From: Candidatus Latescibacterota bacterium
GTDB lineage: Bacteria > Latescibacterota > UBA2968
Direction of reading: 5' to 3'
Length of the DNA stretch: 64,000 bases
Assembly: GCA_965204745.1 (NCBI GenBank)
Contig: OZ242010.1
Span: 896,001 to 960,000 of the forward strand
This document shows positions 1,165-6,334 of this stretch, piece by piece. The position numbers were made by a program, and so were the translations under genes. Each line of letters starts with the position of its first letter. Position 1 is the first letter of the stretch. The notes beneath the pieces are model-generated. The model was not told the origin of the DNA. It searched no databases and worked only from the letters and a program-made list of their open reading frames with translations.

Positions 1165-3876
1165 ATGCGTTCTATCATCTTTTCCATCTGCTTTTTGCCC
1201 CTGCAAGCGCTGGCGAGTTCGCCGCCGTATCACAAAATCGCCGATGTGTCACTCGCGGGGACCCTCGCCCTACAGCACTATCGCCTCGCCAATGGCCTCC
1301 AGGTTGCGATAATCGAAGACGATACGCGCCCGGTCGTAACGTGCCACCTCGCCTATCGCGTGGGATCGGCGCACGAATTGCCCGGGCAGCAGGGCATGGC
1401 GCATCTCGTCGAGCACCTCGCGATGGACCGCACATATCTCGAATCCCTCGGCCTGTTGGGCGCGCCTCACGCCAATGCCAGCACCTCGCGCGATGGCACG
1501 AAGTACTACGCCACTGTGCCCAAAGCGCGGTTGGACACGCTCATCGCCTATTTTGCACGCGACATGACGCAATTCAATATTTCGCAAAAAGAATACGACC
1601 TCGAAAAAGAGGTCGTTTTGAGCGAATGGGCGCGCAGTGCCAAAAGTGCGCGCAGGTGGCTCTACAAAAAACTCTACGCACGCATGTTCGCGGGGCATCC
1701 CTACCAGTACGATATTTTGGGGCATCCCGATACCATTCGGGCTTTCACGTTGGAACGGGCTATCGCATTTCACGAGCGGTACTACGCGCCGAACAACGCC
1801 TGCCTCGCCATTGTCGGCGACGTGAAAGCCGCGGAGATTTTGCCCGTTGTGCTGCAACATTTTGCGGGCATCCCAAAGCGCGTGGGCCGCATTCACGCCG
1901 AAGTCGATACGTCCCAAGCCGCATCCATACCGCAGGATTCCATCGGCACCACGAGCGGGCTGCATTCCAGAGTTTGGGGCGTTTGGAAAATTCCCATCGA
2001 CAGGCATTCCGACTCCCGCGCCTTGTACTTGTTTGACCAAGTCCTCTTCGAGGGCGAATATTCCCCTGCGGATCAAAAATTGGTCGGATCCGGAAAAGCC
2101 CTTTGGATCCGTTCCCATTTTTTGAGCCTGCGCGACAGAGCACTGTATTACTACATCGCCGAACTGCCTTCGGGCGCGCCTTATGAACCCGTGCGCGACG
2201 CCATGCAACAGACCATTCAAACCACAATCGACTCGCTATCAGAAGAAAATTTACTGCTGGCGCGAAACGAAGCGCGGCGAATCCTGTACCGCATGATGAT
2301 CAGCCAAACCCGGCTGGCAACCAACATTTCCAACGCCTTCATTCGCACCGATGACCCGGCCTACGGTCTCAAATGGATGCAGGGTTTCGACGGCATCACC
2401 GTAGCCGATGTTCGGCGCGTGGCAACGCGATATCTGTCGGGGCAACCGCCGCGCACCTTTGTCCTGACCGCGGTCACAGAACCGCCCTCTCGGCGCGCGT
2501 GGCTCTACGCGGGCATCGTTTGGATCATCATCGGCATCGTGGGATGCTGGTACTTGCGGCGGCACGTCCTCGCCGTCGGCGCGATGCTGATCGCCTGCAA
2601 CGCAGCAACCGCGGAAATCCCCAACCACAAAATGTACTATGTGCAAGACCTGCGCGTGCCGCAAACCGGGATTTCAATGGTGTATTTCACAGGAGGCCAC
2701 CGCCGAGAAACGCGGGACACCTGCGGCTTGACCTTTGCGTTTTACCGCCTGTATCCCCTCGCACTCCACGGGGACGACCTCAAAGAAATGGACCGGCTCG
2801 GCGCGGAGTTTTGGATCGACATTTCCGACCGCGCGGTCACTGTCGGCATCGCCACATTTAGCGAAAACTTGGATGCGGCCCTGCGACGCCTCAAAAAGAT
2901 GCTGGACAACCTCACCTTCTCAGAGGCACTGCTCGACCGGGAACGGGCGCGCATCATAGACGATTTTGAGGATCATATCGACGACCGCGAAACGACGGAG
3001 ACCTTTCGGTATCACCTGTACGAAGCCGAGGAAGACCGGCGGCGGGGCACGCGCACTGCGCTCGAAAATTTGACCGCAGAACACTTGCAGCGATTTTGGG
3101 ATCAAACCCTGCGCGCAAAGGTGCTGTATTTTAAGGTGACATCCGATCTCGGCGCAGCGGATATCGAACGCCACTTGCAGGTGATCGCGCATGGCCGCCC
3201 TCGAGATGGCTTTGCCCCGCATCCGCGCCCCAAACGCAAAACCATTGCGGGGTTGCGCGCCTTACTTTCTCCGTCTTCCCATGCGGCGGATTTTTGTCAC
3301 TGGATAACCAATGGCTTGCCACGCACAGATGCGGATTGGTTTGCACAAACCCTGTTGGTCGACGCGCTGAATCGCCTGTTGTTCACCCGGCTTCGAGAGC
3401 AAAACGGCTGGTGCTATTCGACCGGCGTGCGGATCGACACCTGGCCATCCCCACCCGTGTTGCGCTTTTGGGCCAACCCGCAAGGTGTGCATACCGCCAA
3501 ACTCATTCCCGAGATGTTTCGGCTGATCCACCACTGCTTGACCGAACCCGATTTCTGGCAACAAGTGGCGAAAAGCCGCGAAAGGCTCAAGCGCGCCTAC
3601 CATCTGCAACTCGGCCCGTTCGCGCGCCTCAATCAACAGGTGCGCTACGACCGCGATGGCGTGCCCATGCGTTCGCTCGCGGAGTTTGAATCCGCCATCG
3701 ATCAAGTGACGAAAGAAGACATCCGCCGCGTCTTCGGGCACTTCACAAACGACCGCGGCAAATTGCCGTTGCTAATGCTCTTTTACGGCAATTCCGACCG
3801 CATTCAAGACGCTTTGGAACATGAGGACATCCAACTGAAACCAACGATTTTCGGCCTCCAAACCCTGATAAAATGA
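1165..3876 (+). CDS. M16 (pitrilysin/insulinase) family zinc peptidase with signal peptide and a central TM segment
   Basis: HLVEH inverted zinc motif, NAST, YYAPNNA; second M16-like half with LREQNGWCYS. Confidence 0.85.
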   Translation: MRSIIFSICFLPLQALASSPPYHKIADVSLAGTLALQHYRLANGLQVAIIEDDTRPVVTCHLAYRVGSAHELPGQQGMAHLVEHLAMDRTYLESLGLLGAPHANASTSRDGTKYYATVPKARLDTLIAYFARDMTQFNISQKEYDLEKEVVLSEWARSAKSARRWLYKKLYARMFAGHPYQYDILGHPDTIRAFTLERAIAFHERYYAPNNACLAIVGDVKAAEILPVVLQHFAGIPKRVGRIHAEVDTSQAASIPQDSIGTTSGLHSRVWGVWKIPIDRHSDSRALYLFDQVLFEGEYSPADQKLVGSGKALWIRSHFLSLRDRALYYYIAELPSGAPYEPVRDAMQQTIQTTIDSLSEENLLLARNEARRILYRMMISQTRLATNISNAFIRTDDPAYGLKWMQGFDGITVADVRRVATRYLSGQPPRTFVLTAVTEPPSRRAWLYAGIVWIIIGIVGCWYLRRHVLAVGAMLIACNAATAEIPNHKMYYVQDLRVPQTGISMVYFTGGHRRETRDTCGLTFAFYRLYPLALHGDDLKEMDRLGAEFWIDISDRAVTVGIATFSENLDAALRRLKKMLDNLTFSEALLDRERARIIDDFEDHIDDRETTETFRYHLYEAEEDRRRGTRTALENLTAEHLQRFWDQTLRAKVLYFKVTSDLGAADIERHLQVIAHGRPRDGFAPHPRPKRKTIAGLRALLSPSSHAADFCHWITNGLPRTDADWFAQTLLVDALNRLLFTRLREQNGWCYSTGVRIDTWPSPPVLRFWANPQGVHTAKLIPEMFRLIHHCLTEPDFWQQVAKSRERLKRAYHLQLGPFARLNQQVRYDRDGVPMRSLAEFESAIDQVTKEDIRRVFGHFTNDRGKLPLLMLFYGNSDRIQDALEHEDIQLKPTIFGLQTLIK

Positions 3877-3939
3877 GTGATGCCGTGCAACCGGAGAACG
3901 ACGAGCCCTCGTCTATAGAAAAAAATCTTCGTTTATCCC

Positions 3940-3968
3940 TTGACGTTTCACTTGAACTTGGGTATGTT
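3940..3968 (+). promoter_or_regulatory. sigma70-like promoter P1
   Basis: TTGACG-17 nt-TATGTT. Confidence 0.55.
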
Positions 3969-3974
3969 TTCCAA

Positions 3975-4056
3975 ACAGCGGGTTGCCTCGCGTCTCTGTT
4001 TATTTTTCCCTCCCGATAAATAGGGCGCCTCGATGGGTGGCAACCCGCTTTTTTTT
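3975..4056 (+). ncRNA. Candidate sRNA A: long hairpin with a C/U-rich loop, ending in U8
   Basis: AGCGGGTTGCC/GGCAACCCGCT outer stem, CTCTGTTTAT/ATAAATAGGG inner stem, loop TTTTCCCTCCCG, T-run 4049-4056. Confidence 0.5.
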
Positions 4057-4057
4057 G

Positions 4058-4086
4058 TTGACATGCCCATTTTTGCGTCTTATTTT
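4058..4086 (+). promoter_or_regulatory. sigma70-like promoter P2
   Basis: TTGACA-17 nt-TATTTT directly after the sRNA A T-run. Confidence 0.55.
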
Positions 4087-4091
4087 CACCG

Positions 4092-4145
4092 CGCAATACC
4101 CAAGCCTTCAAGGGGATCGGGAGGGACCCCTTGAAGGCTTTTTTT
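4092..4145 (+). ncRNA. Candidate sRNA B: perfect 14-bp hairpin with U-tail
   Basis: AAGCCTTCAAGGGG/CCCCTTGAAGGCTT stem, loop ATCGGGAGGGA, followed by a T-run. Confidence 0.5.
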
Positions 4146-4256
4146 CAGCGCGTATCTCCACGCGATTGTCACTTGACGGAAACGCGGGCGTAACATCGCT
4201 TGGGTATTTTCGCCTGCAAATAGCGAGCGTTCATCACCAAAGAGAAAGGAGGCGAT

Positions 4257-4421
4257 ATGCGTACCGAATGCGTTGATCCGCGTTACGAATTGAATCCCAA
4301 TCAAACGCATTGGATTTACAGCGCGGATGATGTGCGGTCTTTGCTCGAATTTATCGAGCGCGGAGAAAACGACGAAGCCAAGCGCGTTTTGCAAGACCAC
4401 AAGCGGTGTCAGTCAGTTTGA
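4257..4421 (+). CDS. Small hypothetical protein, 54 aa (MRTECVDPRYELNPNQTHWIYSADDVRSLLEFIERGENDEAKRVLQDHKRCQSV)
   Basis: Strong RBS AAAGGAGG 5 nt before ATG; terminator downstream; below the ORF-track cutoff. Confidence 0.55.
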   Translation: MRTECVDPRYELNPNQTHWIYSADDVRSLLEFIERGENDEAKRVLQDHKRCQSV

Positions 4422-4467
4422 CCTGTGGCGGCGGAGAAAACGACGAAGCCAAGCGCGTTTTGCAAGA
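4360..4467 (+). repeat. 37-bp perfect direct repeat (4360-4396, 4431-4467) with a 34-bp spacer
   Basis: GCGGAGAAAACGACGAAGCCAAGCGCGTTTTGCAAGA occurs twice. Confidence 0.9.
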
Positions 4468-4533
4468 GCGAAGATTTCCGCTCGGCTGGCAGTCCAATAA
4501 GTGAGGATATGGGCAGGAAGGGCAATGCAGATC

Positions 4534-4559
4534 AACTCCCCAGCACGGGAGTTTTTTTT
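4534..4559 (+). terminator. Intrinsic terminator after the small ORF
   Basis: AACTCCC/GGGAGTT stem + T-run. Confidence 0.65.
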
Positions 4560-4563
4560 GTAC

Positions 4564-4659
4564 AAAAAAAGAGGCATTGGTCGGGAGGGAATAACCAACG
4601 CCTCAGAGGGATACAAAAAAAACGGCGCTGACTTAGCCGGGGTATAGAAGTCAACGCCG
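4564..4659 (-). ncRNA. Candidate minus-strand sRNA(s): two tandem U-tailed hairpins
   Basis: Minus strand: CGGCGTTGACTT/AAGTCAGCGCCG+T8, and GAGGCGTTGGT/ACCAATGCCTC+T7 with TCCCTCCCG in its loop. G-U pairs favour the minus strand. Confidence 0.45.
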
Positions 4660-4831
4660 ATATTGCGACTCGCTTTGTCGCATGGTCTTTTACGTCTTAT
4701 ATGCGGGGAAAGTTCCCTCGAGATGCGATTTTTTTTGCACGCAGACCTTTTGTGACTGCGCGCTTTCTTTGTTTTTCGTTCTGATATATATTGTCGCGCT
4801 TTTTGTCGTGTATTCTGCAGGAGGAGGAGCT

Positions 4832-6334
4832 ATGGCGCGTGGGCGAAAATTGGAACGCTGGGGCCTGTGGCTCGGCCCGGTGATCGGGCTGGGAGTCGCG
4901 GTTTTTGGCGACCTCGAGCCGGGCAAACCCGAAGTGACCCTGACCGCGGGGGCGGCTTGTTGGATGGCGATCTGGTGGATGACAGAGGCCGTGCCCCTCG
5001 CGGCCACCGCGCTACTGCCCGTGGTGCTCTTTCCCCTGCTGGGCATTATGAATGGGAGAGAGGTCGCGCCGCTGTATTTTAACCACATCATTTTTTTATT
5101 TGTCGGCGGCTTTATGGTCGCCTTGGCGATGCAGCGTTGGAATTTGCACCGGCGAATTGCCCTGCGTCTGCTGCTCGTTTTTGGTGGGTGTCCGCGCTGC
5201 ATCCTGACGGGATTCATGCTGGCAACCGCGTTCTTGTCCATGTGGATTTCCAACACGGCTACAACGATGATGATGGTACCGATAGCCATGGCCATCGTGG
5301 CCAAGATGGAGGAACAGCACGCGGCCTTTGGCCCGGCTGTGTTTTTGGGCGTGGCTTATGCGGCTTCCATCGGGGGGTTTGCAACGCTCGTGGGCACCCC
5401 GCCCAACTTGTCGTTTGCGCGGATTTTAGCCATCCATTTTCCCCGAGCACCCGAGATTTCGTTTGCGACTTGGTTTGCGTTCGCGTTGCCCTTGTCGTGC
5501 GCGATGCTCCTGTGCGCGTGGGGCGTGCTGTGTGTCGCGTTTGGCATCCGCGGGCGCGGCGAGGACATCGACTTGACCGCGGTGGAAATGCAATACGCCG
5601 AGTTGGGGCGAATGTCGTTTGCCGAGAAAATCGTGCTGACCGATTTCGCGTTGCTGGCATTTTTTTGGTTGTCCCGCCGCCCGGTTCAAATTGGCGATTG
5701 GACCCTGCCGGGCTGGTCTCAGCTTTTTGAATCCGCCGAGTTGATGACCGATGGCTCGGTCGCCATGGCGATGGCCTTGGTCTTGTTCGTCATTCCCGCC
5801 CGAGATGGCACGGGCACGCGCGTGATGAACTGGCAAACAGCGGGCAACTTGCCGTGGCACATCGTGTTGCTGATCGGCGGCGGATTCGCGCTGGCGAGTG
5901 GGTTCATCTCGTCCGGCTTGTCGCTTTGGTGCGCGCAACAGTTGAAAATTTTGGGCAGTGTGCATCCCCTGTTCTTGGTCGGCAGCCTGTGCGTGATGAT
6001 GACCTTTTTGACCGAACTGACCTCGAACACCGCGACTGCGGAAATGTTTCTCCCGGTCTTGGCATCGTTGGCCGTTGCGGTGAATGCCAATCCCCTGTTG
6101 CTGATGATCCCGGCGACCTTGTCGTGTTCCTGCGCGTTCATGCTACCCGTGGCGACCCCGCCCAATGCGATTGTGTTCGGCACAGACCGCGTATCCATGC
6201 GCGACATGGCCCGCACAGGCGTGGTGCTCAACTTGGTCGGAACCGTGCTGATCACCCTCGCTATAGCAACCCTGGGCCGCCTCGTGCTGGACATCGACCT
6301 CGGCATAATCCCCGACTGGGCGCAGATTCACTGA
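4832..6334 (+). CDS. DASS/SLC13 family sodium:dicarboxylate or sulfate symporter
   Basis: SNTAT motif twice, GTPPN, ATPPNA, multi-TM. Start placed at the ATG after GGAGGAG. Confidence 0.9.
   Translation: MARGRKLERWGLWLGPVIGLGVAVFGDLEPGKPEVTLTAGAACWMAIWWMTEAVPLAATALLPVVLFPLLGIMNGREVAPLYFNHIIFLFVGGFMVALAMQRWNLHRRIALRLLLVFGGCPRCILTGFMLATAFLSMWISNTATTMMMVPIAMAIVAKMEEQHAAFGPAVFLGVAYAASIGGFATLVGTPPNLSFARILAIHFPRAPEISFATWFAFALPLSCAMLLCAWGVLCVAFGIRGRGEDIDLTAVEMQYAELGRMSFAEKIVLTDFALLAFFWLSRRPVQIGDWTLPGWSQLFESAELMTDGSVAMAMALVLFVIPARDGTGTRVMNWQTAGNLPWHIVLLIGGGFALASGFISSGLSLWCAQQLKILGSVHPLFLVGSLCVMMTFLTELTSNTATAEMFLPVLASLAVAVNANPLLLMIPATLSCSCAFMLPVATPPNAIVFGTDRVSMRDMARTGVVLNLVGTVLITLAIATLGRLVLDIDLGIIPDWAQIH

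Follow-up and report, generated by a model that had tools for sequence, protein, structure and literature searches.

Neighbouring small RNAs with complementary loops in Candidatus Latescibacterota: two new families and a candidate regulator–sponge pair

Why should a short intergenic region of a bacterial genome carry several unrelated hairpins, the loops of which display either one and the same motif or its exact complement? We took up this question in a stretch of 64 kb from a Candidatus Latescibacterota bacterium (contig OZ242010.1, positions 896,001–960,000; hereafter the window, in which positions are counted from the first base), where a first-pass annotation had described three small hairpin RNAs, A, B and C, around an open reading frame (ORF) of 54 amino acids (aa). 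It had proposed that A and C are anti-Shine–Dalgarno (anti-SD) RNAs and that B is their sponge or kissing partner, the whole acting on the ORF or on other mRNAs as a regulatory or toxin–antitoxin (TA)-like circuit. The two promoters P1 and P2, the three hairpins and the ORF with its AGGAGG ribosome-binding site are all present where it placed them. The genome that contains the window, G000, is a single contig of 5.48 Mb (97.65% complete). Our comparative analysis of its relatives gives good support for A and B being two new small RNA (sRNA) families, with covariation-backed structures and complementary loops maintained across an order of Candidatus Latescibacterota, to which both are ancestral. 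The elements at the center of the analysis are:

3940–3968, plus strand: promoter P1 of sRNA A, TTGACG-N17-TATGTT, from the promoter scan and genus conservation
3975–4056, plus strand: sRNA A, about 80 nucleotides (nt), from fold and covariation, with the 5′ end placed from P1
4058–4086, plus strand: promoter P2 of sRNA B, TTGACA-N17-TATTTT, from the promoter scan and conservation in the genus and in other genera
4093–4145, plus strand: sRNA B, about 55 nt, from fold and covariation, with the 5′ end placed from P2

The RNAs A and B within and beyond the genus

A is predicted to fold into a 10-bp outer stem and an inner stem of about 11 bp that presents CCCUCCC in its apical loop (motif at 4007–4017) and to end in a T8 stretch at 4049–4056, whereas B is a single hairpin (4102–4140) with the G-rich loop ATCGGGAGGGA at 4116–4126, followed by a T7 tail. 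The computed folds are −34.8 kcal/mol for A (3972–4056, plus strand; z −4.1), −28.0 kcal/mol for B (4088–4147, plus strand; z −4.0) and −21.4 kcal/mol for the minus-strand hairpin C (4555–4615; z −6.8). The 10-mer TCCCTCCCGA has just three sites in the 64 kb, at 4007 (plus strand), 4117 (minus) and 4581 (minus), every one of which lies in a hairpin loop; the shared loop motif with its exact complement, as first described, is therefore confined in the window to A, B and C. In 100 shuffles of the window it occurred 0.12 times on average and never three times. Across both strands of the 5.48 Mb genome there are eight copies, close to the number expected by chance, and with three of the eight falling within 600 bases this amounts to local clustering rather than to a dispersed repeat; the possibility that the 10-mer is a common genome-wide DNA motif is not borne out. 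P1 and P2 match the sigma-70 consensus at 9 and 10 of 12 positions, respectively. As the scan by itself is not significant (two sites against 0.9 ± 1.0 expected), the support for these promoters comes from their conservation in relatives and not from the scan alone.

No known RNA family accounts for the region, in agreement with the first-pass annotation. A scan of the whole window against Rfam release 15 returned two tRNAs only, and relaxing the E-value to 10 for the region 3800–4850 yielded five chance-level matches, the best of which (mir-239) reached 24 bits where 49 are required. Nor was there any Rfam match in seven loci of relatives.

A DNA search for the region in 41 related genomes recovered it in all 20 other genomes of the same genus and in none of the 20 outside it. 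In the alignment and block map of the resulting 21 genus loci, A and B are both present throughout: the hexamers of both promoters, the terminators and the loop motifs are nearly invariant, while variation is seen in the stems and in the 5′ tail of B, such that the loop cores stay unchanged as the stems around them change. Both hexamers of P1 are kept in 21 of 21 loci, and P2 is likewise kept across the genus. We then used covariance models made from the genus alignments for more distant genera, in a sample of 151 genomes from the phylum (the collection has 53 genomes of the order), and found convincing matches only in two families of one order. The A–B tandem, with a TTGACA-N17-TAnnnT element before each RNA, recurs in G024 (genus g5), G122 and G119 (g9), G036 (g7, of the second family) and G153 (g48). 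The tandem linkage has thus been kept in five genera, the window genus and four further ones, belonging to two families; promoters equivalent to P1 precede A in all five of these genomes, and equivalents of P2 precede B in other genera. Genus g6 has a different arrangement: B and A-like genes are each found in 15 of 15 genomes, at separate places, and the A-like genes often form two to three paralogues. In G027 of this genus, for instance, A and B are megabases apart, at 0.56 and 4.68 Mb.

Several observations on the individual matches may be recorded here. The A-like genes of g6 (loci L178–L200) lie about 5 kb apart where there are two or three copies, one copy type has a CCCCCC loop in place of CCCUCCC, and many of them are without a clear U tail. 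In the second family (L142, L145–L148, L218 and L247), B (in g6), the A–B tandem (in G153) or A alone (in G154) sits just upstream of an aldo/keto-reductase-like gene, which suggests an older, conserved neighborhood unlike that of the window genus. Two R2 matches (L143 and L144) were rejected as plain terminators. B is a single copy in the window genome. A second A-like gene, A2, is encoded there at G000:C1:1934838-1934916 on the plus strand (1501–1579 of L079); its loop has UUCCCUCCCG, it sits behind the end of a gene, and another TTGACA-N17 promoter follows directly after it. Most genomes of the genus have such a second A-like match.

The structures themselves are strongly backed by covariation. 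An alignment from cmsearch, into which antisense matches had been mixed, was left out of the counts in favor of one made from chosen strands. For A, 39 sequences from six genera were compared: across the 21 pairs of the model, 93.2% of the cells are paired and 15 pairs have changed on both sides. For B, the 44 sequences (38 distinct) from seven genera give 97.1% of cells paired over 12 pairs, seven of which have changed on both sides. In neither family did any of 500 shuffles match the covariation score. These shuffle tests are inflated by kinship, and they agree with the many pair types seen and with the slid controls, which pair at 39–50% for A. Throughout, the architectures stay constant—a long two-part hairpin with a 10–12-nt loop ending in CCCUCCC in the case of A (the loop motif being CCCUCCC or CCUCCCUCCC), and a hairpin of 12–15 bp with a (C)GGGAGGG loop in that of B. 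Thus, the loop conservation in homologues and the stem covariation that had been put forward as checks on the hairpins were both found for A and B. The wobble pairs give the direction: those of A are consistent with the plus strand only, and many U·G pairs would become A·C on the opposite strand, which supports A and B as plus-strand and C as minus-strand RNAs.

The same data bear on an altogether different explanation, namely that the motif is a site at the DNA level, such as an operator, or that the hairpins do no more than terminate the flanking genes, with no trans-acting RNA at all. The invariance of the motif would fit a DNA site, as would the near-perfect DNA palindrome formed by the minus-strand RNA D, which is described below. 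However, A and B each have, in several genera, a conserved promoter-like element of their own and a U-tailed terminator about 55–80 nt apart; the stems show compensatory changes, with many G·U pairs that read as A·C on the other strand; a DNA site has no need to be placed in the loops of three unrelated hairpins; and in g6 neither A nor B lies downstream of convergent genes. We accordingly consider this explanation improbable.

Loop complementarity and a proposed mechanism

What, then, is the relationship between the two loops? Each of the two motifs, G-rich and C-rich, is presented in the apical loop of a hairpin that covaries, and in the window these loops can form 11 contiguous pairs. Measured as the longest contiguous Watson–Crick stretch between the loop regions in 39 genomes, the complementarity comprises at least nine pairs in 37 of them, with eight in G001 and six in G024; full-length duplexfold energies of A and B mix stem sequences with the loops and were not used as evidence. 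The pairing of CCCUCCCG with CGGGAGGG means that the conserved complementarity extends beyond a GGAGG/CCUCC core. As the central 8 nt are invariant, the core is uninformative on co-evolution and the informative positions are the flanks. Directly beside the core, 38 genomes have a G:C pair (three of these calls, for the rows L017, G122 and G119, were read by eye) and both genomes of g48 have A:U, there with two copies of A and three of B. In g6, the next two positions are altered on both RNAs relative to the window genus (GGC with GCC) and the pairing is kept, reaching up to 13 nt, and the tandem B of G153 displays a second double change on the other side of the core. These flank changes provide moderate, not decisive, evidence for direct pairing between A and B. 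The compensatory loop changes that the first-pass annotation had named as a check are seen in g48 and g6, and fail to appear in G001, G024 and G036.

The 3′ end of the 16S rRNA is the canonical GGAUCACCUCCUUUCU, which contains CCUCC; CCCUCCC can hence be seen as an extended mimic of the anti-SD sequence and GGGAGGG as an extended mimic of the SD sequence. The mechanism best supported by these comparisons, and one that we hold to be probable though by a clear distance from certain, is that A is a C-rich regulator of the anti-SD type and B its G-rich partner or sponge. Each RNA would be transcribed from its own promoter. The CCCUCCC(G) apical loop of A would block the ribosome-binding sites of mRNAs, and the (C)GGGAGGG loop of B would pair with it loop-to-loop in the cell, and could pair with A2 as well. 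B might thereby titrate or destabilize A, acting as sponge or decoy towards a regulator rich in C. Either RNA may be the regulator and the other its antagonist.

A number of observations weigh against this mechanism and must be set beside it. On the side of the loops, G001 has an uncompensated A·C next to the core, the six contiguous pairs of G024 are what a mismatch in the core leaves, and flank pairs are missing in G036 and G024. The average gain in complementarity of cognate A/B pairs over cross-lineage ones is only about 1 nt, and the flank bases of A are also part of its own inner stem. Given the invariant core, most of the complementarity could be inherited or a by-product of SD/anti-SD mimicry. 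The RNAs do not always occur together either, as G134 has A alone and G152 B alone. On the side of the targets, start regions with (U)CGGGAGGG(A) exist in the genome, and genome-wide complementarity searches established no mRNA target: with crude gene calls (ORFs of at least 100 aa with an SD-like site), 41 of 5786 start regions match the loop region of A over at least 9 nt, which is no enrichment over the 14–52 in 20 flank-shuffled controls. The best of these matches, at G000:4580245 (17 of 18 positions), lies at the start of a gene for a large secreted repeat protein and is not kept among 19 paralogous leaders. Of the original idea of an anti-SD sRNA with a sponge, A and B stand as conserved, independent structured units with complementary loops, and a partner or sponge relation remains their best interpretation.

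The target searches also turned up material that is of interest apart from A and B. The region G000:C1:4580050-4580550 and other places (55 matches) belong to paralogous genes for long secreted repeat proteins that share an AU-rich 5′ leader, and the first ~66 bases of the leader region are a dispersed repeat in G018, G016 and G009. A 16-nt perfect match to A at G000:1358482 falls inside a coding region and was taken as a chance match (about 0.18 expected, by our own estimate).

An alternative that shares most of the evidence is that A and B are both real sRNAs acting independently of each other: A (and C) would bind ribosome-binding sites of mRNAs, B would bind the 30S subunit, C/U-rich mRNA sites or an RNA-binding protein, and their complementarity would be a by-product of the SD-like and anti-SD-like sequences that they carry. 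The invariant cores and the canonical 16S tail are what one would expect in that case, and the wide separation of A and B in g6 (as in G027), the genomes with one RNA without the other nearby and the small excess of complementarity in cognate pairs all point the same way. Against this, the pairing of CCCUCCCG with CGGGAGGG exceeds the GGAGG/CCUCC core, the lineage-specific flanks change together (A:U in g48 and GGC with GCC in g6), the tandem linkage persists in five genera of two families, and no CsrA gene was found. A search for CsrA (PF02599) in the single-contig genome G000 gave no match, whereas control genomes gave matches. The absence of a detectable CsrA gene removes the reading of B as a CsrA sponge, which is further at odds with its one hairpin in place of multiple GGA loops. 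No Hfq gene was found in the same genome. We see independent action as a real but distinctly smaller chance than a regulator A with its sponge B.

The small ORF and the minus-strand RNAs C and D

Does the ORF that follows B belong with the RNAs? The remaining features of the locus, which lies between two protein-coding genes, are as follows:

1165–3876: M16 peptidase gene, flanking gene
4148–4256, plus strand: leader and ribosome-binding site left over from a sigma-70 family gene that has been deleted, by the same leader in relatives
4257–4421, plus strand: 54-aa ORF, the window's copy of the 58-aa cassette gene, its C-terminus altered, by comparison with relatives
4534–4560, plus strand: cassette terminator, a 7-bp hairpin with T8, found in the loci with the ORF block and also in L015
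4564–4612, minus strand: hairpin C (4571–4604) and U tail, the 3′ part of sRNA C and probably a relic, by fold and wobble pairs
4615–4685, minus strand: sRNA D, by conservation in the genus and in g9
4692–4716, minus strand: ECF (extracytoplasmic function)-type promoter-like motif before D, GGAAC-N17-CGT, assigned by its motif
4832–6334: gene for a DASS-type sodium:sulfate symporter family transporter, flanking gene

In ten genus loci, A, B, C and D are packed within 391–395 nt, and two more have small insertions and likewise no ORF block; the block is thus missing from 12 of the 21 genus loci, all of which have A and B, as well as from the tandem loci of the other genera, and is found in the remaining nine. 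Its origin is apparent from the relatives. In G020, G012, G005 and G002 (loci L004, L006, L008 and L009), the leader left over in the window stands before an intact gene of about 307 aa, in which the domains Sigma70_r2 and Sigma70_r4 are recognized. This sigma-70 family gene, which is RpoS/RpoD-like although its scores remain below the curated cut-offs, stands between B and the 58-aa ORF in 5 of the 21 genus genomes, being split in G013 (L007). Within the clade of the window the sigma gene was lost again. G000, G018, G016 and G001 lack it, and the leader there adjoins the small ORF, which is itself degenerate in G001. The 58-aa protein has dN/dS values of 0.15–0.30 among relatives, by which measure it is under purifying selection there, and of 0.34–0.42 in pairs with the window copy. 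In the window, a repeat of 4362–4398 at 4433–4468 shifts the frame and replaces the C-terminus, while the original 3′ end remains at 4433–4504. The small protein has no match in Pfam or NCBIfam, and a protein-atlas lead at 0.77 was not used. These comparisons identify the 54-aa ORF as a damaged leftover of a sigma-factor cassette, inserted between B and C, that lies outside the RNA circuit.

The proposal that the 54-aa ORF is part of a TA-like circuit of the hairpin RNAs, or is controlled by them in some other way, had in its favor the proximity of the ORF and its AGGAGG site and nothing else. The comparative data contradict it: the ORF block is absent from loci that keep A and B and travels with the sigma-70 family gene, no RNA overlaps the ORF, a frameshift affects the 3′ end of the window copy, and its ribosome-binding site offers the loop of A a generic GGAGG only. 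Given its absence from 12 of the 21 loci, its link to the sigma gene and the want of an overlapping RNA, we rejected a type I TA system in particular, and no TA feature was found at the locus. Of all the explanations considered here, control of this ORF by the hairpins is the one to which we give the least credence.

The minus-strand side of the locus is best understood from the relatives, where it forms a unit with D, then a GGAAC-~17 nt-CGTCT motif, a conserved stretch of about 15 nt, hairpin C and a U tail. Seventeen genus loci, two g9 loci and one g5 locus have the motif before C (as GAAAC in g5); it is degenerate in G016 and absent from both the window and G018, and the hairpin itself is degenerate in G018. 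On these comparative grounds C is a real sRNA in the relatives. In the window its promoter and its 5′ part have been deleted and it lies directly after the complete D, and therefore it is most likely a promoterless relic here, unless it is read through from D. The wobble pairs of C are consistent with the minus strand. In 11 of the 18 genomes of the genus compared, its loop has only a 7-nt core in common with A, and the variable base is paired within the stem of C itself. By this comparison C does not track B and is not an equal third partner: of what had first been proposed for C, the hairpin and its RNA nature in relatives hold, but a role equal to that of A does not.

D, a conserved RNA that was absent from the first-pass list, is complete in the window. 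It comprises a small hairpin (4664–4682), a 12-bp hairpin with a C-rich loop (4623–4659) and a U8 tail (4615–4622), and lies divergent from the DASS transporter gene. It is kept in 20 genus loci and in two g9 loci, the latter with another pairing sequence in the place of the small hairpin. The changes in the stems can be accommodated by wobble pairs only when D is read from the minus strand. In the promoter-like motif before D, GGAAC is kept in the genus and g9, and most genus loci have AGT in place of CGT. ECF-sigma promoters are described in the consulted part of the literature (PMC5758882) as having the hallmark AAC at −35 and CGT at −10. By this motif, C and D are predicted to depend on an ECF sigma factor, of which the genome offers at least 13 full-length matches. 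Separately, an R3 match in G056 (locus L173, on G056:C83, at ~480–730 of the reverse-complemented locus) proved unrelated to C. The G056 leader has three copies of a motif of about 14 nt that can pair with each other, followed by a terminator, upstream of a trpB-like gene, and looks like an attenuator or a riboswitch-like switch.

Taken together, one may tentatively picture the locus as an order-ancestral island that tunes translation initiation by SD/anti-SD mimicry, in which an anti-SD sRNA is linked to an exactly complementary sponge, each under its own promoter, in the company of two ECF-type sRNAs on the opposite strand and in an uncultured phylum with no Hfq or CsrA gene in evidence. The control variable in such an island would be the ratio of A to B set by two differently regulated promoters. 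This wider picture is a speculative extension, to be held much more loosely than the pairing of a regulator A with a partner B.

Significance and parallels in known RNA systems

A full-text literature search points to there being apparently nothing in print on small RNAs of Latescibacterota. Rfam has no match either. The sRNA families at this locus, A, B, C and D, are all four new and well supported, and covariation backs their structures. The locus further offers a rare case in which a candidate regulator and a candidate sponge are neighbors that can be traced together through evolution, so that genomes by themselves suffice to test RNA–RNA co-evolution. In a heterologous host, A and B could be put to a simple synthetic test on a reporter that carries a CGGGAGGG ribosome-binding site.

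Among known systems, MicA, RybB and MicL of Escherichia coli are ECF sigma-dependent sRNAs. C and D resemble them in being short, in ending with a terminator hairpin and in having a conserved 5′ stretch and an AAC/CGT promoter-like motif. They differ in that there is no homology, that the sigma dependence of C and D is proposed from the motif only, and that the window copy of C has no promoter. RNAs of the CsrB/RsmZ type are sponges for a protein and have many hairpins; B likewise displays a GGA-containing hairpin loop, but as a single hairpin and in a genome where no CsrA gene was found.

The cuckoo RNAs of Alphaproteobacteria (RSs0680/CcsR, ar14 and related RNAs), to which the first-pass annotation had drawn a loose comparison, are described in the consulted part of the source as having two to four adjacent hairpins, each with CCUCCUCCC (PMC4615179). 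As far as that account goes, they share with A a CU-rich, anti-SD-like loop motif on variable stems and the presence of several copies per genome. A, in contrast, has CCCUCCC on one nested hairpin, B and C form genes apart from it, under promoters of their own or on the opposite strand, and a G-rich partner of the cuckoo RNAs is not described in the portion of the source drawn on here (PMC4615179). Hence, the idea of a CU-rich loop is shared, but the definition of the family by two to four hairpins with CCUCCUCCC does not extend to the RNAs of this locus. Membership of the cuckoo family was rejected for A, which is a single nested hairpin lacking CCUCCUCCC and has no cmscan match.

The closest precedent for the proposed mechanism is provided by RoxS and FsrA of Bacillus subtilis, two C-rich sRNAs for which RosA is the G-rich sponge, and by RsaI with RsaE, RsaD and RsaG in Staphylococcus aureus, as far as these are covered in the consulted part of the source (PMC8216469). 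To judge from that part, these systems have in common with A and B an exposed C-rich region and a separate, stand-alone G-rich sRNA (the pairing of A with B being proposed here from sequence), a sigma-A-type promoter and a Rho-independent terminator for each RNA, and no known requirement for Hfq. There, C-rich single-stranded regions target ribosome-binding sites, the likeness that we propose for A. Yet A and B have no sequence or Rfam relationship to these RNAs, and their host phylum is different and uncultured. If the proposed mechanism is true, the logic of a C-rich sRNA with a G-rich sponge known from Firmicutes would have arisen independently in the FCB group, with Hfq and CsrA apparently absent. 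A and B also carry one motif each, in a hairpin loop, as opposed to the several regions of the Firmicutes RNAs in the account cited above. Finally, A and B are adjacent in tandem with conserved linkage, an arrangement that the same part of the source does not describe for RosA or RsaI (PMC8216469).

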